Origin: Candidatus Hermodarchaeota archaeon
GTDB lineage: Archaea; Asgardarchaeota; Lokiarchaeia; Sigyniarchaeales; SOKP01
Length of the DNA stretch: 26,506 nt
Assembly (NCBI GenBank): GCA_048885525.1
Contig: JBHLLP010000049.1
Span: 1-26,506 of the forward strand
Direction of reading: 5' to 3'
The position numbers and the translations under genes were made by a program. The first letter of the stretch is position 1. Each line of letters starts with the position of its first letter. Positions 3 through 23,298 of the stretch are shown here, one piece after another. The notes beneath the pieces were generated by a model. The model ran no database searches. It had not been told where the DNA came from and was given only the letters and a program-made list of their open reading frames with translations.

Positions 3-2096
3 TATTCTCTCTTTTTCAAATTTTTCTCTTGATTTCTGATGGGATTTTATTAATGTTCCAATTGCTTTTTCAAAGATTTTTCCTGTCTTTTTAAAGCTTT
101 CTATAGCTTTTTCGTGCTCTTCTTGTTTACTTAATTGTTCTGCTTCTTCCAATGATATCCATCCAGAATAATAGGCTGCTTCATAAACGTAACTTGGTAA
201 TTCTATTAATATATCATAAGCTTTCTTATAAAATTCCTTAGCTTTTATATGATTTTCTCGAACATGAAACGATTTAGCTTCTTCAATTAAATTCCAAGCT
301 CTTACATAATTAAATTTCTCATTGATCCTATTTTTTAGAAGTTTATATTTTATCATTTTCAGCGACTTATCATATGCTTCCTTAGCTTTCTTATAATTTT
401 CTGCAGAAATCATATAATTACCCAATCGATCTTCTATACGAGCGATGTACTGATAACTTGCTGCTTCATAAGAAACATATCTTCTATCGATACTTTCTTT
501 TATTGTGAGGAGAAAAATTCCCCGTGCCTGATTTAAAATGGTTTCCTCTCCCGTTATAATCCCTAATTCCTCATATAATAATCCTAACCTCATTTGCTCA
601 GTAATCGCACCAGAACGAGATAATATGGAATAATCGATTGTTTTCTTTTGGGCTTTTATTGCCTTTTGAAGGTGTGTGATCCTGTCTTCCTTCTTTTTAG
701 CGATATCTGCAAGAGTTTTATAAGCCCTATAAAGACAAAAATAACCACCAGCCTGAGGAAATCCTCCTTCATATTTTGAACCAAATTGTTCTGCCTGTTT
801 TGCTTTTTGAAGCATAATTTGAGCATATTCTCCTTGTTTTGTTTTCGATTCTTCGAGAATAGTAAGTTGAGAGTAAGCTAATATCAAACCTTGGTATAAA
901 AATGCAATCACACCAGGGGCATTAGGTCCATTCATAGCCTCTTTTGCGTATTGGATTCCTTTTTCAGCGTAAATTTTACGTTGAGCAGTAGTGAAAAAAC
1001 TCCTTTGAGAGGAATTAGTATAATAAAGCGCAGGAATTAAATGTGTCATAGATCGATATAGATTATAGGGACATACGTAGATCTTCCCTAATTTTAAACT
1101 CTCATTGAGGTCGTTAAGAATTCTTTTCTGTAGATAATTAACTCTACCACTATAAAGTGCAAAATAATCTATGAAAAAGAGGCACTGAACTAGAGTTGAT
1201 TTACTCTTTGTTTTTATAGCAAAATGCAAAGCTTTCTCAAGTAAACTTATTCCCTTATCAAGGTATTCATCTTGTTCTTTCTCATCTTCAACGTACTGAT
1301 ATCCAAAAGAACAATACAAACACCCTGTTACAACATAAACTAGACTGAAAGCCAAGGGATCATTTAGGTTATCGATAATTGCATTAGTTTTAACACACTT
1401 TAATAGAGATTTTTTTTTATATTCCTTATAATGCTCGTTTTTCTTAAAATCTGTTATTGTTTCTAATGCATTGAAAATAATCATCATTTCCATATTCAAT
1501 GATTCGGACAAAATTTGAATATTTCCTGTTTTTTTTGAAATCTCCCAAGCCTTTTTAGCAGATTCTATCCCTTGTTGACCAATCTGTTTAATCTCTTCCC
1601 TATCGATATTATAGAATGTGAGTAAAAATATTGCATTCGCTGTCCTACACAATGTTCTCGCTAAACTCTCTTGATTACCCTCATTTGAATAAATTTTACT
1701 TGATTCACTGAAAAGTTTATATGCTTGACGGTAAGCCTCCTTACCTTCAATATCAGAGGTTGCAAGAAACCCATTTATAAAATATATTTCTGCCTGGCAT
1801 TCTAATTCTTCAGATCTATTTTCAAGTTTCTTAAAGAGATTCACTGCTTCCTCATATGCTTTAACAGCACATTTCATTTGTTTCAGATATTCTTCAGATG
1901 TTTCTACAGTATCAGCAGCTTTAGCATAAGAATATCCAAGATTTTTATAACAATCAGCAGCTTTTTCAACTAGATTTTTATCTAAATAAAAGTGGATAGC
2001 TTTTTCATATAACGCTGCCACTTCAATCCATTTATAGTTTCTTTCTTCCTCTCGTGCCTTGGTTAATAGTGACTCGTTACTTTTCTCTAAAGTCAT
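3..2096 (-). CDS. Third TPR-solenoid paralogue of the TPR-nitrilase array (5' part, ~698 codons; continues beyond the window start)
   Basis: Not in the ORF track because its stop lies outside the window. Manual translation from ATG 2096 gives MTLEKSNESLLTKAREEERNYKWIEVAALYEKAIHFYLDKNLVEKAADCY..., and the same frame reads ...KSREKFEKERI at the window edge. These match the N-terminus (KAREKRKAYNWLE) and the QPERERIDKL region of the two paralogues. It has the same upstream module. The nitrilase domain is inferred, not visible. Confidence 0.9.
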   Translation of the reverse strand, partial: MTLEKSNESLLTKAREEERNYKWIEVAALYEKAIHFYLDKNLVEKAADCYKNLGYSYAKAADTVETSEEYLKQMKCAVKAYEEAVNLFKKLENRSEELECQAEIYFINGFLATSDIEGKEAYRQAYKLFSESSKIYSNEGNQESLARTLCRTANAIFLLTFYNIDREEIKQIGQQGIESAKKAWEISKKTGNIQILSESLNMEMMIIFNALETITDFKKNEHYKEYKKKSLLKCVKTNAIIDNLNDPLAFSLVYVVTGCLYCSFGYQYVEDEKEQDEYLDKGISLLEKALHFAIKTKSKSTLVQCLFFIDYFALYSGRVNYLQKRILNDLNESLKLGKIYVCPYNLYRSMTHLIPALYYTNSSQRSFFTTAQRKIYAEKGIQYAKEAMNGPNAPGVIAFLYQGLILAYSQLTILEESKTKQGEYAQIMLQKAKQAEQFGSKYEGGFPQAGGYFCLYRAYKTLADIAKKKEDRITHLQKAIKAQKKTIDYSILSRSGAITEQMRLGLLYEELGIITGEETILNQARGIFLLTIKESIDRRYVSYEAASYQYIARIEDRLGNYMISAENYKKAKEAYDKSLKMIKYKLLKNRINEKFNYVRAWNLIEEAKSFHVRENHIKAKEFYKKAYDILIELPSYVYEAAYYSGWISLEEAEQLSKQEEHEKAIESFKKTGKIFEKAIGTLIKSHQKSREKFEKERI

Positions 2097-2128
2097 TTAG
2101 GATCAATTTTAAAATAGCTTATGCTCTA

Positions 2129-2200
2129 TTTCGACCTTAAGTGTCTAATATTAATTACTTTGAATGATTAATAAACATTCTGTTCAATTTATAATGTTTT
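2129..2200 (-). promoter_or_regulatory. Conserved promoter/operator module, copy 1 (dyad 2160-2182 over a TATA-like TTTATTAA; GGTCGAAA at 2129-2136)
   Basis: 39/42 nt identical to copies 2 and 3 over 2159-2200. Dyad lies 64-86 nt upstream of ATG 2096. Confidence 0.75.
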
Positions 2201-2233
2201 ACTTTTTTTAGAAAAATAGTTAGAGCACTAGTC

Positions 2234-5200
2234 TTATCTTGTGCTTTGAATAAATAATCGTTCTTCGCCCTTTTCTTTTTCCCATTTTTTACGTTCAGAA
2301 CGCAGCTTGAATAGATCTATATCTTTGAAAATCAATCCTTCTTCTTTTGCTGGGATAATTCGCTCAGTCCGGTCTTTTTCTGGAGTATATATGAGGGATT
2401 CTCCAAATTCTCCAATGTTAGCGAAAAATGAATAGGCATAAATGGATCTCCGGGCATCAAAATGTGCTGCTTTAAAATCGGCAGTTACTGGTGTAAATGC
2501 GGGATTAAGAATTATATCTATAGGAGGCTCGGAATTTTTTAACTCTACTCTTAAGTCCATGTCAAGAAAATCTCGACAAATCGCAATGGCTATTCTCCCA
2601 TATTCTGTATTGCAGATAATTGTTCTTCGAGGTAAACTGCTAACTTCTATTCCCTCTTTGAATTTTTTTCCCGCCTCGAAGCTTATAGTTGCGGGAATAT
2701 GTTTCTCTTGTTCCCAAAGAATACCCTCTGGTCCAAAAACCATACTAATATTTCGTTTCGTTTCCGCTTCATGAAAAGAGCCTGGAACAATATACATCTC
2801 ATTAAATTTAGCCTGATCTGCAATCTCTTCCAAAACTTCCCCGTAGTTCAGATCAATAGTCATTTCTGGGAAGAGTAGGATATTGACTCCCTCGTTATGT
2901 GCTTTTTCAATCACAACTTTAACTTGAGATCTTACTTTTTCAATCTTATTTTCTCTTATTTTTAATAGACCTGAAGAACTCATCTCATAAAGTTCATCCA
3001 TTATATTCCCAGTCTCGGATACACCTATTTGGGCAATACCAACCCTGCATTCTCTTCTTTGAACTTTAGAATATTCTTTAACCAAATCTTTATAGATAAG
3101 TTCATACTTTTTTCGTTCCATTCTCTCCATGGTAACTCGAAGTTCCTCTTCAGTAAACTGACGAGCTTCCCCTAATCTAGGAGATTGGCTGCTTTCAATA
3201 GGACATGAAGGAGCAACAATACCTATAGTACTTCGAGAGATTGATGGTTCTTTTATAGTATTTAAAGCAGAAATAAGAATGGATTCTTCTTTCTCTACTC
3301 TGTTTAATCTGTCTTGAACTTCAATAACTTTATTCTTATAGCCCGCTTTGTTAAATAATTCTAAAGAGGATTTTAAATAATTTGACCCAATACCCAATAA
3401 CCTTCCTTTTTCATTGATATCCAGTTCTTTGTCAGCTTGGATTAAGTGCCAAGCGGCATCAAAATAAATTGAAGTAGCTAGAGCCCAATTTGCTACATTC
3501 TCATAACCACTTTTACCATAAGAGGAAGCTGCGTTACCTAGCATCAACTTCACTTTAGGATATAAATCTGTCTTTATATTAATATTAACTGCTTCATCAA
3601 ACTTACAACTCAGCCCAAGAGCCTGGCAAAATGCTGAATTACCTGAAGCTAATAACTTTAGTTTTGTATCAACAAAGAGGTTACTAGCTTTTGTGAATAG
3701 ATTTGCAGCATAATCAAACCTTTCTGGTTCTTCAAATTTTTCTGCAAGTTCCATACTTTCCCAAGCTCGACAAAGATAATATATTGCTTCGAGTTCCTTT
3801 CTTTCTCTTTCTAACTTATATCGTGTACAAACACCTCTAAATACTGATGCAGCAATAGCGAATTTTTCCGCAGCTGTTGAGTGATCCCCCGTTTTCCCCA
3901 AGATTCTAGCCTCCTCTAGATTAATTCTAGCATTACAATAACTTATTCTTACTTTTGCAACCTTCTGAAGTTTATCTATTCGTTCCCTTTCGGGTTGTCC
4001 TTCAGCTTTTTCTAATGCATTTTCAAGTATTTTTATAGCTTCTTCGAAAGCTTGTATTGTTAATTTATACTGATTTATAGCTTCTTCTTGTCTTTCCTGT
4101 TTACTTAATAGCTCTGCCTCTTCTAACAATGCCCAAGCCGCATTATAAGATCCTTCAAAAGAATACCTACGGATTTTTTGTAAAATTTCACTAGATTTTT
4201 CATAACTTTCCTTCGCCTTTAAATGACTTTCATTTCTATGATGTGCTTTTGCTATCTCGATCAGATTCCAGGCATGTGCATAATCTATCTTTTCTTTAGT
4301 TCTTTTTTTAAGTAACCTATATTCAATGCTTTCCAATGACTTCTTGTGATTTTCTTGAGCATTTAGGTAACATTCTGCTGAAGCTGTGTGATTTCCTAAT
4401 CGATCCTCTATACGAGCAACATATTCATAGCTAGTACCTGCGTAAGAATAATATCCTCTTTCCAAACTACCTCTAACTGCTTCAAGGAATTTTTCTTTTG
4501 AATTCAATAATTTATGATTATCTTTAGTTAAAATACCGAGTTCTTCATAAAGAAGCCCTAACCTCATTTGAGCCACTATAATACCTGTTCGAGATTCTGT
4601 TCCATAATTCATATACTTCTCTGCTGAATCTATTGCAGATGTCAGCATTTGAATTTTCTTTTCTTCAATTTCAGCGATGTCTGCTAGAGTTTTATATGCT
4701 CTATATAAAGAAGCATATCCAAATGTCCGAATTTGTCCTCCTCCATACTTTTCTCCTAATTTATTTGCTAATTTTGCATAATTAAGCATTTTTTCGATAT
4801 ACTGATTCTGTTCCTCCTTAGATGAACTTAATTTTGCTAAGACTGCATAAGAAACAGTAAGTGCTAAATATGAATAATTATCCATTAGAGGAAGTATTTT
4901 TAAATTTTTTGAACTATAATCAATCGCTTTCGTAGCATACGATCTTCTTTGGAATGGTGTAAAAAAGCTCCACTGGGCAGTATTAGAATAATATAAACTT
5001 GGTAACCAATATAGCTGAAAAAGAATCGTAGCTAACGCTAAAGAACCTCTTTGTTCAAAGCATTCCACAAAAATCTTTCCCACTCTTTCAATCTCTTGAA
5101 GGTCTTTAGTAATTCTATTTTGGAGATACATTATCTTGCCGCTAAGCAAGGCATACCTGCTCAAGCTACCAATTGTAAAAATTAAAATAGCCTTGTCTTT

Positions 5201-6094
5201 TGTTTCTCTTGTATTTTCTAAGCTAATCTCTAAAGAGTTCATTCCTTTATCAAAATATTTTCTTTGCTCTATTTCATTCTCACAAATTTTGAGAGCATAT
5301 TCACAGTATACCATACCAATTATACCATGTAAAATTCCAAGGAATAAATTATCCTCATAATTTATGTCATTAATGATCATTAAAGCTTCTTCACATTTTA
5401 CCATTAAGTCTCTATGTCGCCTTGCTTGAATACGCTTGTCATAAGAAAAAAATCCATATTGGTTGTTGAGAAACCAATACGACATCATATATAAGAGATA
5501 AATTAAATAATTCACATTTCTAATGTCCCTTGAGATTTCCCATCCTTTTTCAAAAAGTTCAATATATTTTTGAGAGAAATTTTTAATTTCTTGAGGATTA
5601 GGGTTAAATATTGTTTTCAATTCCAGCGCCGAAATTGACTCTACTGCAATCCTAGCAATAACTTCTCCTTTTTTTTCTTCTTTATAAATCTCATTTAGTT
5701 TATTATAGATCTCAATTGATCTATCAATCACTTTCTCCGCTTCAACTATAGGAATTTGGCTGTACGCATTATGTAGGAGTTTAATTGCCGTACATTCCAG
5801 TTCTTCAGCTTTTTTCCCTAACTGTTTATAGAAAGATTCGCATTTTTCAAAAATTTTAAGTTCTAAATTTAAAACTTCTATAAGTTGTTCAGTTGTTGAA
5901 ACAGTAGGGAAGTAAAAAGTACCATATTCGAAAAGTTCTATACAAATCTCCAATACTTTTTCTTGATCTTTTTTGTCAATATAATTATCCACAGCCAGAT
6001 CAAAAAGCCTCACTGCTTCCAACCAGTTATATGCTTTTCTTTTTTCTCGAGCTTTTTCTAATAGACTAAGTCTACCTTCATCCAATAAAGACAT
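2234..6094 (-). CDS. TPR-like solenoid protein with C-terminal carbon-nitrogen hydrolase (nitrilase) domain, 1286 aa
   Basis: A/E/K/Y-rich helical repeats (e.g. ASAECYLNAQE, AAEKFAIAAS). The C-terminal ~270 aa carry nitrilase-superfamily motifs RVGIAQI, LLFPEM (Glu), IVPGS, QEKHIP (Lys) and YGRIAIAICRDF (Cys). Confidence 0.85.
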   Translation of the reverse strand: MSLLDEGRLSLLEKAREKRKAYNWLEAVRLFDLAVDNYIDKKDQEKVLEICIELFEYGTFYFPTVSTTEQLIEVLNLELKIFEKCESFYKQLGKKAEELECTAIKLLHNAYSQIPIVEAEKVIDRSIEIYNKLNEIYKEEKKGEVIARIAVESISALELKTIFNPNPQEIKNFSQKYIELFEKGWEISRDIRNVNYLIYLLYMMSYWFLNNQYGFFSYDKRIQARRHRDLMVKCEEALMIINDINYEDNLFLGILHGIIGMVYCEYALKICENEIEQRKYFDKGMNSLEISLENTRETKDKAILIFTIGSLSRYALLSGKIMYLQNRITKDLQEIERVGKIFVECFEQRGSLALATILFQLYWLPSLYYSNTAQWSFFTPFQRRSYATKAIDYSSKNLKILPLMDNYSYLALTVSYAVLAKLSSSKEEQNQYIEKMLNYAKLANKLGEKYGGGQIRTFGYASLYRAYKTLADIAEIEEKKIQMLTSAIDSAEKYMNYGTESRTGIIVAQMRLGLLYEELGILTKDNHKLLNSKEKFLEAVRGSLERGYYSYAGTSYEYVARIEDRLGNHTASAECYLNAQENHKKSLESIEYRLLKKRTKEKIDYAHAWNLIEIAKAHHRNESHLKAKESYEKSSEILQKIRRYSFEGSYNAAWALLEEAELLSKQERQEEAINQYKLTIQAFEEAIKILENALEKAEGQPERERIDKLQKVAKVRISYCNARINLEEARILGKTGDHSTAAEKFAIAASVFRGVCTRYKLERERKELEAIYYLCRAWESMELAEKFEEPERFDYAANLFTKASNLFVDTKLKLLASGNSAFCQALGLSCKFDEAVNINIKTDLYPKVKLMLGNAASSYGKSGYENVANWALATSIYFDAAWHLIQADKELDINEKGRLLGIGSNYLKSSLELFNKAGYKNKVIEVQDRLNRVEKEESILISALNTIKEPSISRSTIGIVAPSCPIESSQSPRLGEARQFTEEELRVTMERMERKKYELIYKDLVKEYSKVQRRECRVGIAQIGVSETGNIMDELYEMSSSGLLKIRENKIEKVRSQVKVVIEKAHNEGVNILLFPEMTIDLNYGEVLEEIADQAKFNEMYIVPGSFHEAETKRNISMVFGPEGILWEQEKHIPATISFEAGKKFKEGIEVSSLPRRTIICNTEYGRIAIAICRDFLDMDLRVELKNSEPPIDIILNPAFTPVTADFKAAHFDARRSIYAYSFFANIGEFGESLIYTPEKDRTERIIPAKEEGLIFKDIDLFKLRSERKKWEKEKGEERLFIQSTR

Positions 6095-6126
6095 TTATTA
6101 TCAAATATGGGTTTATATTTACTAAA

Positions 6127-6198
6127 TTTCGACCTAATTGTTTAATCATTAATTACTCTGAATGATTAATAAACATTCAGTTCAATTTAAAATGTTTT
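6127..6198 (-). promoter_or_regulatory. Conserved promoter/operator module, copy 2 (dyad CTGAATG-N9-CATTCAG 6158-6180; GGTCGAAA 6127-6134)
   Basis: 6157-6198 is identical to 10135-10176. Dyad lies 64-86 nt upstream of ATG 6094. Confidence 0.78.
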
Positions 6199-6230
6199 AC
6201 TTTTTTAGTCAAGCAATTGAGAAATAAGAT

Positions 6231-9200
6231 TTATCGTGTACTTTGTATGAATAATTGTTCTTTATTATTCTCTTTTTCCCATTTTTTACGTTCAGAACGT
6301 AGTTTAAATATATTTATATCTTTAAAAATTAAACCTTCTTCTTTTGGAGGTATTATTTGCTCAGTTCGATCTTTTTCTGGAGTATAGATGAGAGATTCAC
6401 CATATTCACCAATATTAGCAAAAAATGAATATGCATAAATGGATCTACGGGCATCAAAATGGGCAGCTTTAAAATCAGCTGTTACTGGCGTAAATGCGGG
6501 ATTTAGGATTATATCTATAGGTGATTCAAAATTTTTCAGTTCTACTCTGAGATCCATATCAAGGAAGTCTCGACAAATCGCGATTACGATTCTCCCATAT
6601 TCTGTATTACAAATAATTGTTTTCCGTGGTACCTTGTCAACTTTTATTCCCTCTTTGAAGGGTTTTCCAGCCTCGAAGCTAATGGTAGCGGGAATGTGCT
6701 TCTCTTGTTCCCAAAGAATACCCTCCGGTCCAAAAACCTTACAAATATTTCTTTTTGTTTCTAATTCATGAAAAGAACCTGGAACAATATACATCTCATA
6801 TAATTTAGCTTGATCTGCAATATCTTCCAGAAATTCCCCATAGTTTAGATCAACAGTCATTTCCGGAAAGAGTAGAATATTAATTCCCTCATTATACGCT
6901 TTTTCAATCATAAATTTAACTTGCGACCTTATTTTTTCAATCTTATCTTCTCTAATTTTTAGCAAACCTGAAGGACTACTTTCAAAAAGTTCATCTATTA
7001 TATTCCCTGTCTCTGATACACCAATTTGGGCAACACCAATCCTACATTCTCTTCTTTGAACTCTAGAGTAATCTTTAATCAAATCTTTATAGATAAGTTC
7101 GTACTTTTTTCGTTTCATTCTCTCCATAGTAACTCGAAGTTCTTCTTCAGTGAACTGACGAGCTTCCCCTAGTCTAGGAGAATAGCTGCTTTCAATAGGG
7201 CAAGAAGGAGCAACTATCCCCATTGTACTTCGAGAGATTGAAGGTTCATTTATAGTACTTAAAGCGGAAAATAGGATCGATTCTTCCTTCTCTACTCTGT
7301 TTAATCTATCTTGAACCTCATTAACTTTATTCTTATAACCCGCCTTTTCAAATAATTCTACAGAGGACTTTAGATAATTCGAGCCAATACCCAATAACCT
7401 TCCTTTTTCATTGATATCCATTTCTTTATCGGCTTGAATTAAATGCCAAGCAGCATCAAAATAAATGGAAGTAGCTAAAGCCCAATTCGCCACATTTTCA
7501 AAACCACTCTTACCATAATAGGAAGCTGCTTTACTTAACATCAATTTCACTCTAGGATATAAATTTGTTTTTATATCGATATCCACTGACTCATCAAATT
7601 TACAACCTAACTCAAGAGCCTGGCAAAATGCTGAATTGCCTGAAGCTAATAACTTTAATTTAATGTCAACAAAGAGGTCACTAGCTTTTGTAAATAAATC
7701 TGCTGCATAATCAAACCTTTCAGGCTCTTCGTATTTTTCTCCAAGTTCCATACTTTCCCAAGCTCGACACAGATAATAAATAGCTTCAAGTTCCTTTCTC
7801 TCTCTTTCCAATTTATATCTTGTACAAACACCTCTAAAAATTGAGGCAGCAATAGCGAATTTTTCTGCAGCTGTGGAATGATTTCCCTTCCTTCCTAATA
7901 TTAATGCTTCTTCTAGATTGATTCGAGCAGAACAATAATTAATTCTTACTTCTGCTACCTTCTCAAGCTTTTGTATTCGTTCTTTTTCTGGTTGATCTTT
8001 AGATTTTGCCAAAGCCTCCTTTAGGATGCTAATGGTTTCTTCGAAAGCTTGTATTGTATTTTTATATTGATTTATAGCTTCTTCTTGTTTTTCTTGTTTA
8101 CTTAGAAATTCTGCTTCTTCTAACATTGCCCAAGCAGCATTATAAAAACCCTCATAATAATACTTAGATATTTTTTTTAAAATCTCACTTGAATTTTCGA
8201 AGTTTTCCTTTGCTTTTATGTGGTTTTCATTTTTATGATACGCCTTAGCTTTTTCGATTAAGATCCAGGCATGAGCATATTGTATCTTCTCGTTAACTCT
8301 TGCTTTAAGGGCTCTATATTTAATACTTTCCAGTGATTTCTTATGATATTCTTGAGCTTTCATATAATTCTCAGCCGAAGCAGTATGGTTACCAAGCCGA
8401 TCCTCTATCCGTGCAATGTATTCATATGTTGTACCTGCATAAGAATAATAACCTTTCTCAAGACTACTTTTAAGAGCCTCATATAGTAGTTCTTCTGCCT
8501 TAGTTAGTATTTCTTCATCTTTTTCAAAAATCCCGATTTCTTCATAGAGAAAAGCTAATCTCATTTGTGCGGCAATAATACCTGTACGAGACTCCTTAGC
8601 ATATTTTAGATAATTTTTTGATGCATCAGCGGCAAGTGACAACATTTTAATTCTTTCTTGTTTATTCTTAGTAATATCAGCTAAAGTCTTATAAGCTCTA
8701 TTAAGGGAATTGTATACAAAGGCTTGCATTAGCCCCTCTCCATATTTTTCACCAAGTTTTTTACCTTTATTTGCATAATCGAACATAGATTTAACATATA
8801 TCTCCATCTCTTCTTTTGATTTGGAAAAACGAGCTAGAACAGCATAGCTCAAAGTAAGGGACATATATGAGAATGATTTTATCTCTTCATATGTGTTCCA
8901 ACCTAAAGTTTTCAATCCAAATTCAATCCCTTTTTTCGCATAAGACTTTCGCTGATTTGGTGTGAAAAAGCTTAATTGGGATATATTTGAATAATAAAAT
9001 GTTGGTAAATAATTTACATAAAAGTATGCTACATCAAATAAACCTACGACTAAACCTGCAAATATTTTTCCTGCTTCACTAATCTCCTTAATGTCGTTCA
9101 TAATTCTTTTTTGTAGATACATATAATTACCGCTAAGAATTGCGTATTGATTTATATAATAAAGTGTCATAACATTGAGATACTTATTTTTAACTTTTCT

Positions 9201-10073
9201 TGCTAATTCTAAGCCCATTTCAAGAAACTTAAATCCTTTATCAAAATAATTTCTCTGTTCGATCTCATCGTCAGTATGTTTATGTCCATATTCACAGTTC
9301 ACACAACCATATGTATAGTACAAATAAGGAAGGAGGAAGGGATTATTATATGTTTTAAAGAACTTTATGCTTTCATCACACTTATAAATAATATTTTTAT
9401 AGGCGTCTTTGGATTCTTCAAGCCATTTGGAATCAATATGTGTTAACAACATTATATGAAAACACTCAGAAAACAAGGAGAAAACGATATAAATCATTTT
9501 TCTTTTCTCTATTGAAAGTTTCCAAGCCTTTCTACTTAGTTCAATTATTCTCTCTGCTACCTTCTTAATTTCTTCTGGCTCCTCGCATAAACTTAGATAA
9601 AAAGTTAAAGTTAAGGATAATTTATACATAATTCTTAAAGGAATTTGCTTATCGTCTTTTTTTGAATATGCCTCATATAAAATATAACTTAACTCCAGTG
9701 CTTTATTCGCCATTTTCTTCCCTTCTTCAATAGAATTTGCTAGAGTAAGGCTAGAATAGAAATGACCTATTTCTAATTCTAGACTTTCAAGTTCATTTCC
9801 TTTCTGTCTAAAGAGACCTGCTGCTTCTTTAAATAATTTGGACCTTGTCTTGAGTATTTCTAAATATTCTTCTGCTGTTTTGACACTGAATCCATAAAGA
9901 TAATATTTTATGGTCAAATCATTAAAAATTTCTATTGCTTTTATATTATCTTTTTTATTAATGTAAGATTTCGCAGCCTGATCATACAGTTTTAAAGAAT
10001 TTAACCAGTTATAAGCATTCTCTTCTTCCCAAGCCCTTTTTAATAAATCTTCTTCACTTTCCTTTAGTTGCAT
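6231..10073 (-). CDS. TPR-like solenoid protein with C-terminal carbon-nitrogen hydrolase (nitrilase) domain, 1280 aa
   Basis: Colinear paralogue of 2234..6094 with the same FPEM / EKHIP / ICRDF triad and the same FIQSTR C-terminus. Confidence 0.85.
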   Translation of the reverse strand: MQLKESEEDLLKRAWEEENAYNWLNSLKLYDQAAKSYINKKDNIKAIEIFNDLTIKYYLYGFSVKTAEEYLEILKTRSKLFKEAAGLFRQKGNELESLELEIGHFYSSLTLANSIEEGKKMANKALELSYILYEAYSKKDDKQIPLRIMYKLSLTLTFYLSLCEEPEEIKKVAERIIELSRKAWKLSIEKRKMIYIVFSLFSECFHIMLLTHIDSKWLEESKDAYKNIIYKCDESIKFFKTYNNPFLLPYLYYTYGCVNCEYGHKHTDDEIEQRNYFDKGFKFLEMGLELARKVKNKYLNVMTLYYINQYAILSGNYMYLQKRIMNDIKEISEAGKIFAGLVVGLFDVAYFYVNYLPTFYYSNISQLSFFTPNQRKSYAKKGIEFGLKTLGWNTYEEIKSFSYMSLTLSYAVLARFSKSKEEMEIYVKSMFDYANKGKKLGEKYGEGLMQAFVYNSLNRAYKTLADITKNKQERIKMLSLAADASKNYLKYAKESRTGIIAAQMRLAFLYEEIGIFEKDEEILTKAEELLYEALKSSLEKGYYSYAGTTYEYIARIEDRLGNHTASAENYMKAQEYHKKSLESIKYRALKARVNEKIQYAHAWILIEKAKAYHKNENHIKAKENFENSSEILKKISKYYYEGFYNAAWAMLEEAEFLSKQEKQEEAINQYKNTIQAFEETISILKEALAKSKDQPEKERIQKLEKVAEVRINYCSARINLEEALILGRKGNHSTAAEKFAIAASIFRGVCTRYKLERERKELEAIYYLCRAWESMELGEKYEEPERFDYAADLFTKASDLFVDIKLKLLASGNSAFCQALELGCKFDESVDIDIKTNLYPRVKLMLSKAASYYGKSGFENVANWALATSIYFDAAWHLIQADKEMDINEKGRLLGIGSNYLKSSVELFEKAGYKNKVNEVQDRLNRVEKEESILFSALSTINEPSISRSTMGIVAPSCPIESSYSPRLGEARQFTEEELRVTMERMKRKKYELIYKDLIKDYSRVQRRECRIGVAQIGVSETGNIIDELFESSPSGLLKIREDKIEKIRSQVKFMIEKAYNEGINILLFPEMTVDLNYGEFLEDIADQAKLYEMYIVPGSFHELETKRNICKVFGPEGILWEQEKHIPATISFEAGKPFKEGIKVDKVPRKTIICNTEYGRIVIAICRDFLDMDLRVELKNFESPIDIILNPAFTPVTADFKAAHFDARRSIYAYSFFANIGEYGESLIYTPEKDRTEQIIPPKEEGLIFKDINIFKLRSERKKWEKENNKEQLFIQSTR

Positions 10074-10105
10074 TGAAACTCAATTATAAGATAATTTTAT
10101 TTATT

Positions 10106-10176
10106 TTTCGACCCTACTGTCTAATGTTAATTAATCTGAATGATTAATAAACATTCAGTTCAATTTAAAATGTTTT
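10106..10176 (-). promoter_or_regulatory. Conserved promoter/operator module, copy 3 (dyad 10136-10158; GGTCGAAA 10106-10113)
   Basis: Dyad lies 63-85 nt upstream of ATG 10073, in the divergent gap before hppA. It is therefore a 5' element and not a terminator. Confidence 0.78.
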
Positions 10177-15081: not shown

Positions 15082-15419
15082 AAAGAGACGAGTGAGATAT
15101 GGAGCTGACGGTGGGTTTAACCCGCTGAGGAACCTCACGCCACTCTCCAAGCAAGGTGTAGATAACTACTACGGTGAGAACCGTAATTTAGCAACTGAAA
15201 CGACACTGCCTTTTTACGCATATTAATGACTTGGATATAAGCCAGAGAAATTGTAGGAAGGAATGGTTGGAACGAGCTAAAACCTTGGTGCAAGGCCAAA
15301 TGAAAGCGATAATGTACTTGGAGCTAGCTTTAGGTAGGCCGCTTAGTTTGATGCTCCACAGAGGTTTGGGTAACTAAACCACTGACAGAAGCGTGGGTAT
15401 ATATCTCAAGCGTCTCTTT
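15082..15419 (+). ncRNA. rnpB: RNase P RNA, archaeal (type A-like)
   Basis: GC-rich island between CDSs. P1 is aaagagacg..tgagatat / atatctca..cgtctcttt. P2 is ggagc/gctcc. P3 is the hairpin cggtggg..cccgctg. CR-I GAGGAACCUCACGC pairs with CR-V ACAGAAGCGUGGGUAUA to give P4 with a bulged U. P8 is gtag-ataa-ctac. P9 is tacggt-GAGA-accgta. A P19-like hairpin ggtttgg..ctaaacc is present. Confidence 0.95.
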
Positions 15420-19882: not shown

Positions 19883-21940
19883 TTAAAAAAACTCTTTTCG
19901 ATGCTTTTTACTTCTTTTCAACTGCAATATAATGATTGTAGTGACCCCAAAAATTACACTAAATAGAATAAATGCATCATACCCGGGTATCAATTCCGGT
20001 GTTTCCGGCGCCCTAGTAGTCCACTTTAAAGTATAAACATTTCCAGAATTATCTCCAAAGATCCTTATAAAGTAGGTTCCATTAGAGGGAACAACATAGT
20101 CTATAAACTCATTATCGCTCTCCGTGAAGTTACTAGTTTTTTTATATATACCCGAATCATAAATTTCAATTCCAATCGCACCTTCTTGATAATCAAAGGT
20201 TACTTTTACAAACAGATGTTCATATCCTGAATAGACTAATATTCGATACCAATCATTATCATACTGTAGAGCATATCCTTGAAGATCCTTTAGTTCAGTA
20301 TCTGGATAAAATGATATATCAAATGCGGCCGATGCAGCATCATTTTCCTCATAATTATCATCAGGTCTAAAATCAGTTCGAATATCGTCCCACCAGAGAT
20401 CATATTCCTGTCTTATATAATCTCCACCTATTTGAATAAAATAAGCTCCATATGGAAGTAAAATATCAATGTCGATATTATCATCACCCGACATTGAATA
20501 ATTACTAGTTATCCAATTCGTTGAATGCCACTGTACTTGGAACTCATAAATATCAACATATATATTTCCAAGCGAAAGGTTAAATTTAACATTAACAATT
20601 AGATGCTCAAAACCAGGTGTAACCTCAATATAATACCAATCTTCACTTTCTTGAAGTGCTAATCCACCAATATCGCTTAACCACGTATACTCATCATCTT
20701 TTAAATTGTATGCTTGATCGTACCAATCGTTAGATTCATACCAATCATCCAATTTGTTTACTTCTAAGTCATACTGAACATCAGAATCACTAGTAGCATG
20801 ATACACCCGAATTCTCCAGTCTCCAGATATTTTCGCTCTATATTTAATATGCTCTTTTGACCAACCATCATTTTCGGTACTCGAATAAGATCCAGCTCGC
20901 TGGTTATTAGATGGATCATATAGTTCTAACTGTAAATTACCCCTTTTATGTTCGAAGAAAATAACAACATCAATTACTTCTCCTGTATTTAAATATATTT
21001 GAAACCAATCTTCATCTGTGCCAATAATGCTTAGACCACCCCAACCACCTGGAGTAATTGGCGCAGCTCTCCAAAACCCATCGTTGGGTTCAAAAGGATC
21101 CATCGTAGATCCTCCTGTATATACCAATATATCTAAATCATAATATTCATCAATACTTCCAGTAAGACGATATATTCGAATCGCCCAATCCCCTGACATA
21201 TCTGCTGTAAATGAGATATATTCATAATCGTAACTCGAATAAGAGCCTGTTCGTGGGTTATTAGAAGGATCATATAGTTCTAAATCTAGATCACCATCTG
21301 AATGAATGAAGTAGATATAAATTTCGATAGTTTCACCTGGATTTAAATATGTTCGAAACCAATCCTCATCATAGCCTACAATCTTCAAAGGACTGTAATA
21401 TCCCGGACTAACAGAATAAGCACTCCCATAATCATCGTTTTCCTCCATCCAATCATCTCCTGTATATACCAATATATCTAAATCATAATATTCATCAATA
21501 CTTCCAGTAAGACGATATATTCGAATCGCCCAATCCCCTGACATATCTGCTGTAAATGAGATATATTCATAATCGTAACTCGAATAAGAGCCTGTTCGTG
21601 GGTTATTAGAAGGATCATATAGTTCTAAATCTAGATCACCATCTGAATGAATGAAGTAGATATAAATTTCGATAGTTTCACCTGGATTTAAATATGTTCG
21701 AAACCAATCCTCCTCATAACCTTCAATAATCAAACTAGAGTAATAACTCGGACTAAGATACCAAGCACCCCAAAAATCATTGTTTGGTTCATAACCGTCA
21801 TTTACTGCGCTAATTGGTGGAGCAATTCCATCAGTTAGATTATTGTTAGAAATATTTCTAACAATTTTAATACCAGAGACGACTATAAGAAGTAAAAAGA
21901 TTAAAGATAAGCCCCGTTTATAATTTTTATTAAATTTCAT
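19883..21940 (-). CDS. Cell-surface protein with five pre-peptidase C-terminal (PPC)-like repeats and a Loki-CTERM-type anchor
   Basis: N-terminal signal/TM segment. Repeats of D..E.ND...A ... DWF/DWY ... DLELYD. The C-terminus has IPGYD, a hydrophobic helix and a basic tail. Confidence 0.82.
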   Translation of the reverse strand: MKFNKNYKRGLSLIFLLLIVVSGIKIVRNISNNNLTDGIAPPISAVNDGYEPNNDFWGAWYLSPSYYSSLIIEGYEEDWFRTYLNPGETIEIYIYFIHSDGDLDLELYDPSNNPRTGSYSSYDYEYISFTADMSGDWAIRIYRLTGSIDEYYDLDILVYTGDDWMEENDDYGSAYSVSPGYYSPLKIVGYDEDWFRTYLNPGETIEIYIYFIHSDGDLDLELYDPSNNPRTGSYSSYDYEYISFTADMSGDWAIRIYRLTGSIDEYYDLDILVYTGGSTMDPFEPNDGFWRAAPITPGGWGGLSIIGTDEDWFQIYLNTGEVIDVVIFFEHKRGNLQLELYDPSNNQRAGSYSSTENDGWSKEHIKYRAKISGDWRIRVYHATSDSDVQYDLEVNKLDDWYESNDWYDQAYNLKDDEYTWLSDIGGLALQESEDWYYIEVTPGFEHLIVNVKFNLSLGNIYVDIYEFQVQWHSTNWITSNYSMSGDDNIDIDILLPYGAYFIQIGGDYIRQEYDLWWDDIRTDFRPDDNYEENDAASAAFDISFYPDTELKDLQGYALQYDNDWYRILVYSGYEHLFVKVTFDYQEGAIGIEIYDSGIYKKTSNFTESDNEFIDYVVPSNGTYFIRIFGDNSGNVYTLKWTTRAPETPELIPGYDAFILFSVIFGVTTIIILQLKRSKKHRKEFF
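21112..21712. repeat. Perfect 256-bp direct repeat inside the surface-protein gene (21112-21367 = 21457-21712, period 345 bp)
   Basis: Base-by-base comparison shows no mismatch over 256 nt. The intervening 89 nt differ from the corresponding segment of the other repeat. Confidence 0.92.
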
Positions 21941-22135
21941 ACAATATTAACAAAGACTCAAACTTATAAACTTTCACATATCAGTAAAACGGACGGTATA
22001 AGGCGATGAATATTAAATTCAATTATTTACAAATGGATATAACTTATTTTGGCTTTCAATACTATTCAATTCGATAATAAGAGCAATTAATTGAGGAATT
22101 CCTAATAAATAGTGAATTATAACTAAAAAGTTTGA

Positions 22136-22252
22136 TTAATTTACTAAAGCAAAATTACAATCAGCATCTCCACATCCAGGGCATTTGAATCCCTCTTCAG
22201 GAAAATCTTCAAGTTCGAATTCATGTCCACATTTGTCACATTTCCATTTCAG
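22136..22252 (-). CDS. 38-aa rubredoxin-like / zinc-ribbon protein with an apparent CTG start
   Basis: (M)KWKCDKCGHEFELEDFPEEGFKCPGCGDADCNFALVN*. SD GGTGA lies 6 nt before the CTG, and TTTATAAA sits at 22289-22296. An in-frame TGA three codons upstream excludes an earlier start. Confidence 0.75.
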   Translation of the reverse strand: MKWKCDKCGHEFELEDFPEEGFKCPGCGDADCNFALVN

Positions 22253-22335
22253 TTTTAATCACCAAAATCTCAGAAGTGCTTCTATTCCTTTATAAATCAA
22301 TGTATTTATGCTATTTATTAATATAAAAAGAGTCG

Positions 22336-22399
22336 GGTATCGTAAATATAGACACGGTCAAAAATTAACTGGAATTGATAATATTAAGCATTAATTGGT
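22336..22399 (+). pseudogene. Short degraded remnant of an MBL-fold hydrolase gene paralogous to 13208..14209
   Basis: 22352-22376 is identical to 13984-14008 (25 nt). Flanking similarity with indels corresponds to GI.NI..HGQKLTGI..I.ALIG. Confidence 0.65.
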
Positions 22400-22739
22400 A
22401 AAATAAATTTGCAGAGTTAAATTAAACCGACAAAAAAGTTTGAGTTAGCCTTATATGGATGATAAATACTAATGCTTGAAACTGGTATCGCGAATAAAAA
22501 CTCTGATAGAAAGTTTTGTATATACTTCAAGTGATTATTTTTATTTTTTTTTCTCTAATTTTGATAGAATTTAGATATTCCTCTTAATATTTTCCAATTT
22601 TAAGTATGAAAGACTAAAAAAAAATGTGCATTTTTTTTTATAAATATAAAATTTTAGCATAGAATTTTAAGTTAGTATTTTTATGGAAATATGGGATAAG
22701 AATATTTTTTTTAAAAAATAATTAAAATGGTTTTTTACC

Positions 22740-23015
22740 ATGGAAAAATTGATAAAGTTACTGAATAAGAGAGGATTATATAATACATTTAAAGTATTTT
22801 CTATATTTGATCAATATAGAGCAGATAAACATTCATTTTATCAAAAACTCACTGAATTTAGTCATTATAACTCTTTTCTTCGAATAAAAGATAAGTTATT
22901 AGAAAAAAATATTCTTGTTATTCACAACAATAATAGAACAACTTATTTTGAACTTACACCTAAAGGTAAACATATATTTTCTCTATTAAAAGAATTAGAA
23001 GAATTATTAGAATAA
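22740..23015 (+). CDS. Small winged-helix DNA-binding protein (putative regulator)
   Basis: 91 aa. The C-terminal L.EKNIL....RTTYFELTPKGKHIFSLLKEL is a wing-helix pattern typical of archaeal wHTH proteins. Confidence 0.6.
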   Translation: MEKLIKLLNKRGLYNTFKVFSIFDQYRADKHSFYQKLTEFSHYNSFLRIKDKLLEKNILVIHNNNRTTYFELTPKGKHIFSLLKELEELLE

Positions 23016-23298
23016 ATATTAATTTTATTAACTTTTTTATGTATTTAGATAAAAATCTAATAATTATGTATTATTGCTAAAAAATTTTAATATTTTTTTT
23101 AAACGACTAATTAAAAAGATTAATAATATTTTAAACCAAAAATTAACGTGGAAAAAAATTTTTCCATTTTTGAAAAAAAAAAATAAAAATTTTTATACTT
23201 TGCTATAATTTAGAAATCTTGATTCCAAGAATTCTTGAATCCAATAGGGTAATTCAAGATTATTTAGACTTGGATTAAAAAAATATATAATTATTTCG

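Follow-up and report, generated by a model that had tools for sequence, protein, structure and literature searches.

Introduction

What might three very large genes, lying head to tail in an Asgard archaeon and each joining a long helical scaffold to an enzyme of the nitrilase superfamily, do for the cell that carries them? The genes occupy one end of contig JBHLLP010000049.1 of the assembly GCA_048885525.1 (Candidatus Hermodarchaeota archaeon; 3.58 Mb in 87 contigs, estimated to be about 99% complete), and this entire contig (C49; 26,506 nucleotides, nt) is the window analysed here. A first-pass annotation, made from the letters of the DNA alone, had seen in them a tandem array of giant solenoid–nitrilase genes in an Asgard-like archaeon, with intact catalytic residues and a conserved element before each gene, and had suspected an undescribed sensor–effector system; the organism is indeed an Asgard archaeon, and array, residues and element are all borne out below. 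The answer proposed here from sequence comparison, with about even confidence, is that the array encodes ligand-gated single-chain sensor–effector proteins, probably defensive and most likely antiviral. This reading is favoured because the genes stand alone, because their occurrence is patchy and polymorphic, because one end of the protein evolves fast and the catalytic end is constrained and of a defence type, and because scaffold and enzyme have been swapped reciprocally for other modules, TIR domains included.

The Array and the Proteins It Encodes

All three genes are co-oriented on the minus strand and are separated by gaps of 136 nt (6095–6230, between copies 1 and 2) and 137 nt (2097–2233, between copies 2 and 3). 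According to the open reading frame (ORF) calls, copy 1 (P0002, 6231–10073) encodes 1280 residues and copy 2 (P0001, 2234–6094) 1286 residues, each comprising solenoid, linker and nitrilase, and the first 698 codons of copy 3 (P0003, 3–2096) run open at the window end. The assembly break falls inside copy 3: the end of a second contig of the same assembly (C54, 20397–22211) encodes 605 residues, equivalent to residues 674–1278 of the full-length protein (P0031), which overlap P0003 by 25 identical residues. Since this end both overlaps P0003 and completes its reading frame, copy 3 is an intact gene for a protein of 1278 residues, with the same nitrilase domain as the other copies. Overall, copies 1 and 2 are 64% identical, the identity being about 22–48% in the first 490 residues and 82–91% from residue 700; for the 698 residues of copy 3 encoded in the window, the identity to copy 2 is 38%.

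In each protein an α-solenoid of about 950 residues, resembling tetratricopeptide repeats (TPR), is followed by a conserved disordered linker and then by the nitrilase-fold domain. An AlphaFold2 model of residues 287–1286 of copy 2, computed from an alignment of 106 homologues (mean predicted local distance difference test, pLDDT, 85; an earlier model of the nitrilase domain alone had reached 63, and the larger alignment improved it), begins with 26 helices paired into hairpins, which end near residue 935; about 40 disordered residues and a single helix then lead to the α-β-β-α domain. The first-pass annotation had spoken of a TPR solenoid; the helical solenoid is upheld by AlphaFold2 and by Foldseek, where it matches Ctr9, Ski3 and an IFT-A subunit at low template modelling (TM) scores of 0.18–0.26, and the attribution to TPR proper is not. 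Pfam TPR_12 scores 18.6–23.4 bits on the window proteins against a cut-off of 30.1, and, because every Pfam TPR match is likewise sub-threshold, the modelled solenoid is best called TPR-like. The linker (3167–3289, minus, about residues 936–976 of copy 2; counterpart in copy 1 at 7164–7286, minus) carries the motifs EPSISRST and APSCPIESS; despite its predicted disorder it is nearly invariant in the homologue alignment, and in relatives it is retained ahead of TIR, zinc-finger-like and other end modules.

The C-terminal domain (2237–3070, minus, about residues 1009–1286 of copy 2; 6234–7067, minus, in copy 1) carries the motifs FPEM, EKHIP and ICRDF in both complete copies. In copy 2, Glu1077 (codon 2864–2866), Lys1131 (2702–2704) and Cys1173 (2576–2578) align with the triad motifs of Nit2, and the corresponding residues of copy 1 are Glu1071 (6861–6863), Lys1125 (6699–6701) and Cys1167 (6573–6575), all on the minus strand. 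Both the Glu-Lys-Cys triad and the C-terminal tail FIQSTR (2237–2254 in copy 2, 6234–6251 in copy 1, both minus) are invariant in the 106 homologues, the triad likewise in a set of 30. Foldseek finds Nit2 (2w1v, E 3e-9, target TM 0.70), the PH0642 amidase (1j31, TM 0.69) and, further, formamidase, β-ureidopropionase and carbamoylases; as modelled, the domain is therefore a nitrilase-superfamily fold with an intact triad, and catalysis is predicted. A prediction of the nitrilase homodimer gave a median score of 0.37 against a mark of 0.42, which is no answer and is not used as evidence. On the opposite strand, antisense ORFs of 110 residues occur at the same position in the part of copies 2 and 1 that encodes the nitrilase (2442–2774 and 6439–6771, plus); the likeliest explanation is that they arise incidentally from the sequence conservation.

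To which kind of nitrilase the domain belongs is less easily read from general family models. Pfam CN_hydrolase (PF00795) scores 22.3 bits on P0001, just under the gathering cut-off of 23.2 (E about 1e-4), and does not match P0002, although the close relatives P0018, P0010 and P0168 exceed the cut-off with 26.9, 24.9 and 35.4 bits; no NCBIfam family matches P0001. The PADLOC models, on the other hand, are matched by all of the 30 members scanned: CARF_nitrilase (best E 9e-19), RTasNitrilase (2e-16) and RT_UG5-nitrilase (2e-14), with Drt1a matched by 10 of the 30; moreover, the DRT1 structure 9yfd is matched by profile from the catalytic Cys to the tail (E 0.005). On these sequence scores the domain is placed with the defence-type nitrilases associated with CARF domains and reverse transcriptases, an assignment which is provisional because PADLOC holds defence models only and the clade was assigned by profile scores.

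Scaffold and Enzyme as Separate Modules

Judged by their relatives, scaffold and nitrilase are separate modules, each with other partners. An exhaustive search with the scaffold only (residues 1–1000) returned 467 representatives at 50% identity, the tails of which include CN_hydrolase, TIR_2/ThsB-type TIR, calcineurin-like phosphoesterase (Metallophos) and DUF835, as well as KaiC-like, AAA and NACHT ATPases, the commonest being a BatD/DUF11-like β-sandwich. In the closest variant, P0017, residues 1–1004 of copy 2 are matched at 74% identity, after which the protein continues into TIR_2. Among other near relatives the end module is either a Cys-rich tail, zinc-finger-like when read by eye, or a possible Roadblock/longin-like domain, suggested as a lead only by a language-model search (score 0.88–0.89). 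Reciprocally, at an identity above 70%, the nitrilase module also occurs behind canonical TPR_12/MalT TPRs, behind Pkinase, or behind an α/β-hydrolase with AAA_16. The β-sandwich type of scaffold was also met at one locus of a Bathyarchaeota metagenome-assembled genome (MAG), in a contig scan with the single protein P0173; this locus (L016, 5983–12597) consists of two tandem ORFs, of 1182 and at least 931 residues, the first of which matches the scaffold superfamily.

Rates of Evolution along the Protein

The synonymous divergence (dS) between the three paralogues ranges from 0.5 to more than 2. In their C-terminal halves dS is 0.5–0.9 at a nonsynonymous divergence (dN) of 0.05–0.09, so that the similarity of these halves reflects purifying selection; recent tandem duplication or gene conversion, considered as its sole cause, is rejected on the same values. 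Along the protein, windowed dN/dS was taken from orthologue pairs with unsaturated dS (0.2–0.35), and amounts to 0.25–0.68 over residues 1–480, 0.04–0.15 over residues 640–960 and 0.05–0.12 in the catalytic core of the nitrilase (about residues 1115–1280). The fast-evolving N-terminal 480 residues of copy 2 (4655–6094, minus; 0.40–0.68 against its orthologues) and their counterpart in copy 1 (8634–10073, minus) are the candidate recognition part. Such a gradient is what would be expected of a protein with a recognition end and a constrained output end; the windowed averages stay below 1, so that positive selection is unproven. In one orthologue pair dS jumps locally to 1.5 in the region of the linker and the beginning of the nitrilase, and this mosaic dS indicates an exchange of segments, by recombination, between paralogues.

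Distribution, Copy Number, and Neighbours

Clustering at 90% identity leaves more than 640 clusters in the family, with lengths nearly always of 1260–1295 residues; the source MAGs bear the labels Promethearchaeota/Loki-, Thor-, Hod-, Hermod- and Odinarchaeota, and some members bear the NCBI label "nitrilase-related carbon-nitrogen hydrolase". Among the sampled Asgard genomes the nitrilase module is present in 55 of 201 (28 of the 86 of high quality), with 0–8 matches per genome, and is confined to a few families; tandem arrays of two to five genes occur in several genomes. The genome studied here has seven nitrilase domains, namely the three of the array, at least two in tandem on contig C44, one on C25, and one on C3 which sits behind canonical MalT-type TPRs. 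The paralogues on C44, C25 and C3 are also cut at contig ends, which implies that the repeat family itself fragments the assembly and that copy numbers taken from MAGs are lower bounds. Thus the pattern named in the first-pass annotation as arguing against a gated system, that of a single-copy, uniformly conserved gene in a fixed operon, is not the one found: the family is multi-copy, patchy and free of a fixed operon. The stretch itself is present in public metagenome DNA runs from sediment, soil and mangrove, and no RNA run is listed among the public sequencing runs that contain it.

In a tree of 115 full-length members the paralogues belong to old subfamilies, all of which have orthologues outside this genome; likewise, the four members placed on it from a five-gene array of another MAG are scattered. 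The expansion of the family surmised from the window is accordingly real as regards copy number, and is no recent local burst. What varies among close relatives is the content of the locus between H+-pyrophosphatase (H+-PPase) and TauE, where between one and three different members are found: in one relative H+-PPase is followed by the copy-1 orthologue (P0012, the sole family member there) and TauE, in a second by the orthologues of copies 2 and 3, and in a third these two orthologues precede a methyltransferase gene. In the organism under study the array is bordered on one side by the divergent H+-PPase gene, and on the other, beyond copy 3 on C54, by genes for TauE, a methyltransferase, two pyridine-nucleotide-disulphide oxidoreductases (Pyr_redox), a Xer-type integrase and Cdc6/Orc1. 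Since TauE and its followers come directly after copy 3 and H+-PPase stands on the other side, the array comprises exactly three genes; further copies to the left of the window, which the first-pass annotation had recommended seeking, are ruled out by the same continuation of C54. The Xer-type tyrosine recombinase and Cdc6/Orc1 genes (C54, 3287–5943) lie about 4–7 kb downstream of the array, which may be near a replication origin or an integrated element.

Across lineages no recurring neighbour gene or conserved operon partner was seen at the loci examined. The defence genes that had been thought worth seeking nearby do not adjoin the array in the window, and the only defence-like neighbours at the loci examined are one HEPN/MNT pair and one weak HEPN match; the former is a Polbeta nucleotidyltransferase/HepT (HEPN-MNT) toxin–antitoxin pair immediately downstream of one member (L022, 12285–13113). 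Neither the proteins nor their neighbours contain a reverse-transcriptase or CARF domain, and no cas gene stands beside any locus examined. At one locus only, in another Asgard MAG, three genes of the family form an array that directly adjoins a ubiquitin-like cluster of JAB, ThiF (E1) and UQ_con (E2) genes (L021, 5384–7394).

The Conserved Upstream Element

Upstream of all three genes, and on their strand, lies a 50-nt block in which 47–50 positions are identical (as an element of 36–50 nt, 94–100% identity), at 10127–10176 for copy 1, 6149–6198 for copy 2 and 2151–2200 for copy 3, the last differing from the copy 2 element at 3 of the 50 positions. It contains an A-rich stretch resembling a transcription factor B recognition element (BRE), a TATA-like TTTTAAAT and a flanking dyad AAACATT-N13-AATGTTT (10149–10175, 6171–6197 and 2173–2199, respectively), besides a second dyad, CTGAATG-N9-CATTCAG. 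A further block, GGTCGAAA, follows in the presumed 5' leader (10106–10113, 6127–6134 and 2129–2136, minus). Because dS between the very same genes is 0.5 to more than 2, the element must be under constraint and is no leftover of recent duplication. In other genomes it is found, 48 of 50 positions identical, upstream of the copy-1 orthologue, and in part upstream of the TIR variant P0017, where its first 38 nt are kept and the second dyad is lost; both genes also have GGTCGAAA. When three mismatches were allowed, the 36-nt core occurred five times in 41 family-level genomes, with 0 control matches, all five occurrences being in one genus and about 70–100 nt upstream of the start codon of a scaffold-family gene.

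From general knowledge of archaeal promoters the element is likely to be a BRE/TATA promoter, and the dyad may be the site for a common regulator, that is, a putative operator. A role as a leader RNA element is not supported (consensus energy −2.4 kcal/mol, no covariation), and the element is therefore treated as acting at the DNA level. Nor is it common to all paralogues of the genome, since the region upstream of the C44 copy is a different one, about 75 nt long, which closely resembles that of an 81%-identical orthologue in a Hermodarchaeota-labelled MAG (L010, 17750–17909); on this comparison, promoter or leader would seem to be specific to each subfamily.

Possible Function and Its Alternatives

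If the proteins are gated sensor–effectors, the variable N-terminal solenoid would bind a trigger, the likeliest candidate being a viral or mobile-element protein; binding would alter the conformation or the assembly of the scaffold, bringing nitrilase domains together, and the active enzyme would then hydrolyze a protein side chain or a conserved cellular molecule that bears an amide or nitrile, with arrest of the cell as the outcome. The invariant C-terminal tail may serve as an active-site lid, as in the reverse-transcriptase system DRT1 (see below); paralogues with different N-termini would recognize different triggers; and each gene would be transcribed from its own promoter, the dyad-bearing element possibly binding one regulator common to all. 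Nitrilase-superfamily enzymes generally have to form oligomers for activity and, like TIR domains and RecA/AAA ATPases, rely on oligomer interfaces; because of this shared dependence, activation by induced assembly would suit the different end modules of the scaffold. A more specific picture is put forward tentatively, as one which we would sooner doubt than accept: the family would represent NTPase-independent innate-immune receptors of Asgard archaea, built on a 950-residue solenoid chassis with a hypervariable N-terminus and a conserved linker, to which exchangeable plug-in effectors (nitrilase, TIR, phosphoesterase) are attached, encoded in polymorphic tandem arrays resembling plant NLR clusters, and employing here a nitrilase that, switched on upon scaffold assembly, would kill or arrest the cell through destruction of a conserved metabolite.

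A number of observations speak against a defensive role. Domain scans found no P-loop NTPase match in P0001–P0003, unlike what is known of STAND/Avs receptors; viral contigs searched with residues 700–1286 contained no relative; in the window and at most loci examined the neighbours are housekeeping genes; some of the scaffold tails (KaiC-like ATPase, BatD-like β-sandwich, the Roadblock/longin-like candidate, the Cys-rich tail) are atypical of immune effectors; and the models by which the enzyme was classed are, as noted above, models of defence systems. In addition, identity of the nitrilase between Asgard families is unusually high (59–87%), and the paralogues represent old subfamilies whose orthologues occur in other genomes; a conserved cellular role would be compatible with both as well.

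Precisely such a role is envisaged in the alternative that survives best, which we consider unlikely and which is kept alive because the enzyme is extremely conserved, the subfamilies are old, the neighbours are housekeeping genes and the end modules do not look like effectors. The family would in this case be regulatory and protein-modifying rather than immune: the solenoid would recruit client proteins, different ones for each paralogue, and the nitrilase would deamidate or acyl-modify them, for example in the manner of an N-terminal amidase (Nta1-like) or by deamidating side chains, possibly in connection with ubiquitin-like modification or trafficking. TPR solenoids are classic peptide-binding adaptors and Nta1 is a member of the nitrilase superfamily, both of which count in its favour, as do the zinc-finger-like and (as a lead only) Roadblock/longin-like tails of sister scaffolds and the JAB-E1-E2 cluster beside one array; the adjacency to ubiquitin-type genes is, however, limited to that single locus. 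It is less easily reconciled with the absence of the module from most high-quality genomes (28 of 86 have it), with copy numbers of 0–8 and a locus that differs among close relatives, with the TIR domain on the closest scaffold variant, and with a nitrilase which fits defence models at least 10 orders of magnitude better than generic or metabolic ones.

The modularity and polymorphism that point to an antiviral system would also serve for a conflict system of another kind, such as an addiction, kin-discrimination or stress-suicide module in which a nitrilase toxin is restrained by its own scaffold, and the HEPN/MNT toxin–antitoxin pair beside one member could be cited for it; this we regard as improbable, given that general domain scans yielded no signal peptide or secretion-type domain, that no cognate immunity gene recurs at the loci examined and that the viral contigs searched hold no member of the family. 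An ordinary metabolic amidase or ω-amidase with a large structural or assembly domain, as the best structural matches (Nit2, formamidase, β-ureidopropionase, carbamoylases) and the metabolic genes near the array might suggest, is very improbable, since no operon or set of pathway neighbours is conserved across the loci, roughly two thirds of the genomes searched yielded no member of the family, one genome carries 6–7 copies, TIR takes the place of the enzyme on the very same scaffold and P0001 matches no metabolic family of NCBIfam.

Relationship to Known Systems

Should the proteins be defensive sensor–effectors, as preferred here, the nearest comparison is with the class 3 UG-Abi reverse transcriptases, in particular DRT1 (PDB 9yfd) and UG5, which likewise reach about 1200–1300 residues and carry a C-terminal nitrilase behind a helical-repeat region. 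In DRT1 the nitrilase is the effector and needs oligomers, and a conserved C-terminal tail forms the lid that holds it closed (PMC13275509); the extreme C-terminus is conserved in both DRT1 and the window proteins. The enzyme joined to class 3 UG/Abi reverse transcriptases is in some a nitrilase and in others a phosphohydrolase, the nitrilases among them constituting a separate clade (PMC9226505); the scaffold family described here alternates in the same manner between nitrilase and phosphoesterase. Unlike DRT1, the window proteins have neither a reverse-transcriptase domain nor protein-primed DNA synthesis, the regulating part being the solenoid of 950 residues; the host is an Asgard archaeon, the genes form tandem arrays of paralogues, and the defence role is a predicted one.

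Nitrilases are also listed among the cyclic-oligonucleotide-activated effectors of type III CRISPR systems (PMC8157118), and it is the PADLOC model of such a protein (CARF_m7--CARF_nitrilase) that scores best on the family; there too, a nitrilase stands under a ligand-sensing domain, although no CARF domain was detected in the window proteins, whose putative sensor is the helical solenoid. With STAND/NLR-like receptors (Avs, TPR- or WD-bearing NACHT/NB-ARC proteins) and with TPR-CHAT the family shares a repeat-solenoid sensor joined to a swappable effector (TIR, hydrolases), the rapid diversification of the putative recognition part and the variable copy number. AAA_16, present on some relatives of the nitrilase module, is absent from the window proteins, which differ from this group further in that the effector is C-terminal and the scaffold belongs to a distinct family shared with Bathyarchaeia. 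Finally, Nit2/ω-amidase and the PH0642-type amidases have the same α-β-β-α fold and Glu-Lys-Cys triad (target TM about 0.7); these are stand-alone enzymes of about 270 residues, unlike the window domain, which is only 13–19% identical to them and falls below the Pfam gathering threshold.

The architecture appears to be undescribed, as had been supposed at the outset: no description of it was found in the literature on Asgard nitrilase/TPR proteins, on "carbon-nitrogen hydrolase" or on defence and TIR, and the words nitrilase, TPR and DRT are absent from the Asgard defence surveys searched. On the preferred reading, the proteins would combine a regulated nitrilase effector with a sensor scaffold of a new kind. 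If this is true, a widespread and previously unlisted family would be added to the Asgard "defensome", and the enigmatic defence-type nitrilase would have a third independent sensor context, after reverse transcriptase and CARF; if instead the proteins recruit and modify clients, they would constitute a new client-specific protein-modifying system, likewise uncharacterized. In either case the family is large enough for comparative and structural work to begin immediately.

Other Features of the Window

Outside the array, the gene for an archaeal RNase P RNA (full-length match to Rfam RF00373 at 123 bits) lies at 15089–15412 on the plus strand, between a GNAT gene and an LCM-type methyltransferase gene. 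The region 21941–23298, 1.36 kb with a G+C content of 22–24% and devoid of ORFs of at least 100 residues, was found to contain only low-complexity A/T repeats; it is flanked by divergent genes for large secreted-type proteins (PPC/GOLD-like and NosD/β-helix). The first of these (19883–21940, minus) encodes a protein of 685 residues with three PPC domains and a weak emp24/GOLD match (E 6e-6, just above the Pfam cut-off), which could be an Asgard surface protein with a eukaryote-like GOLD domain.

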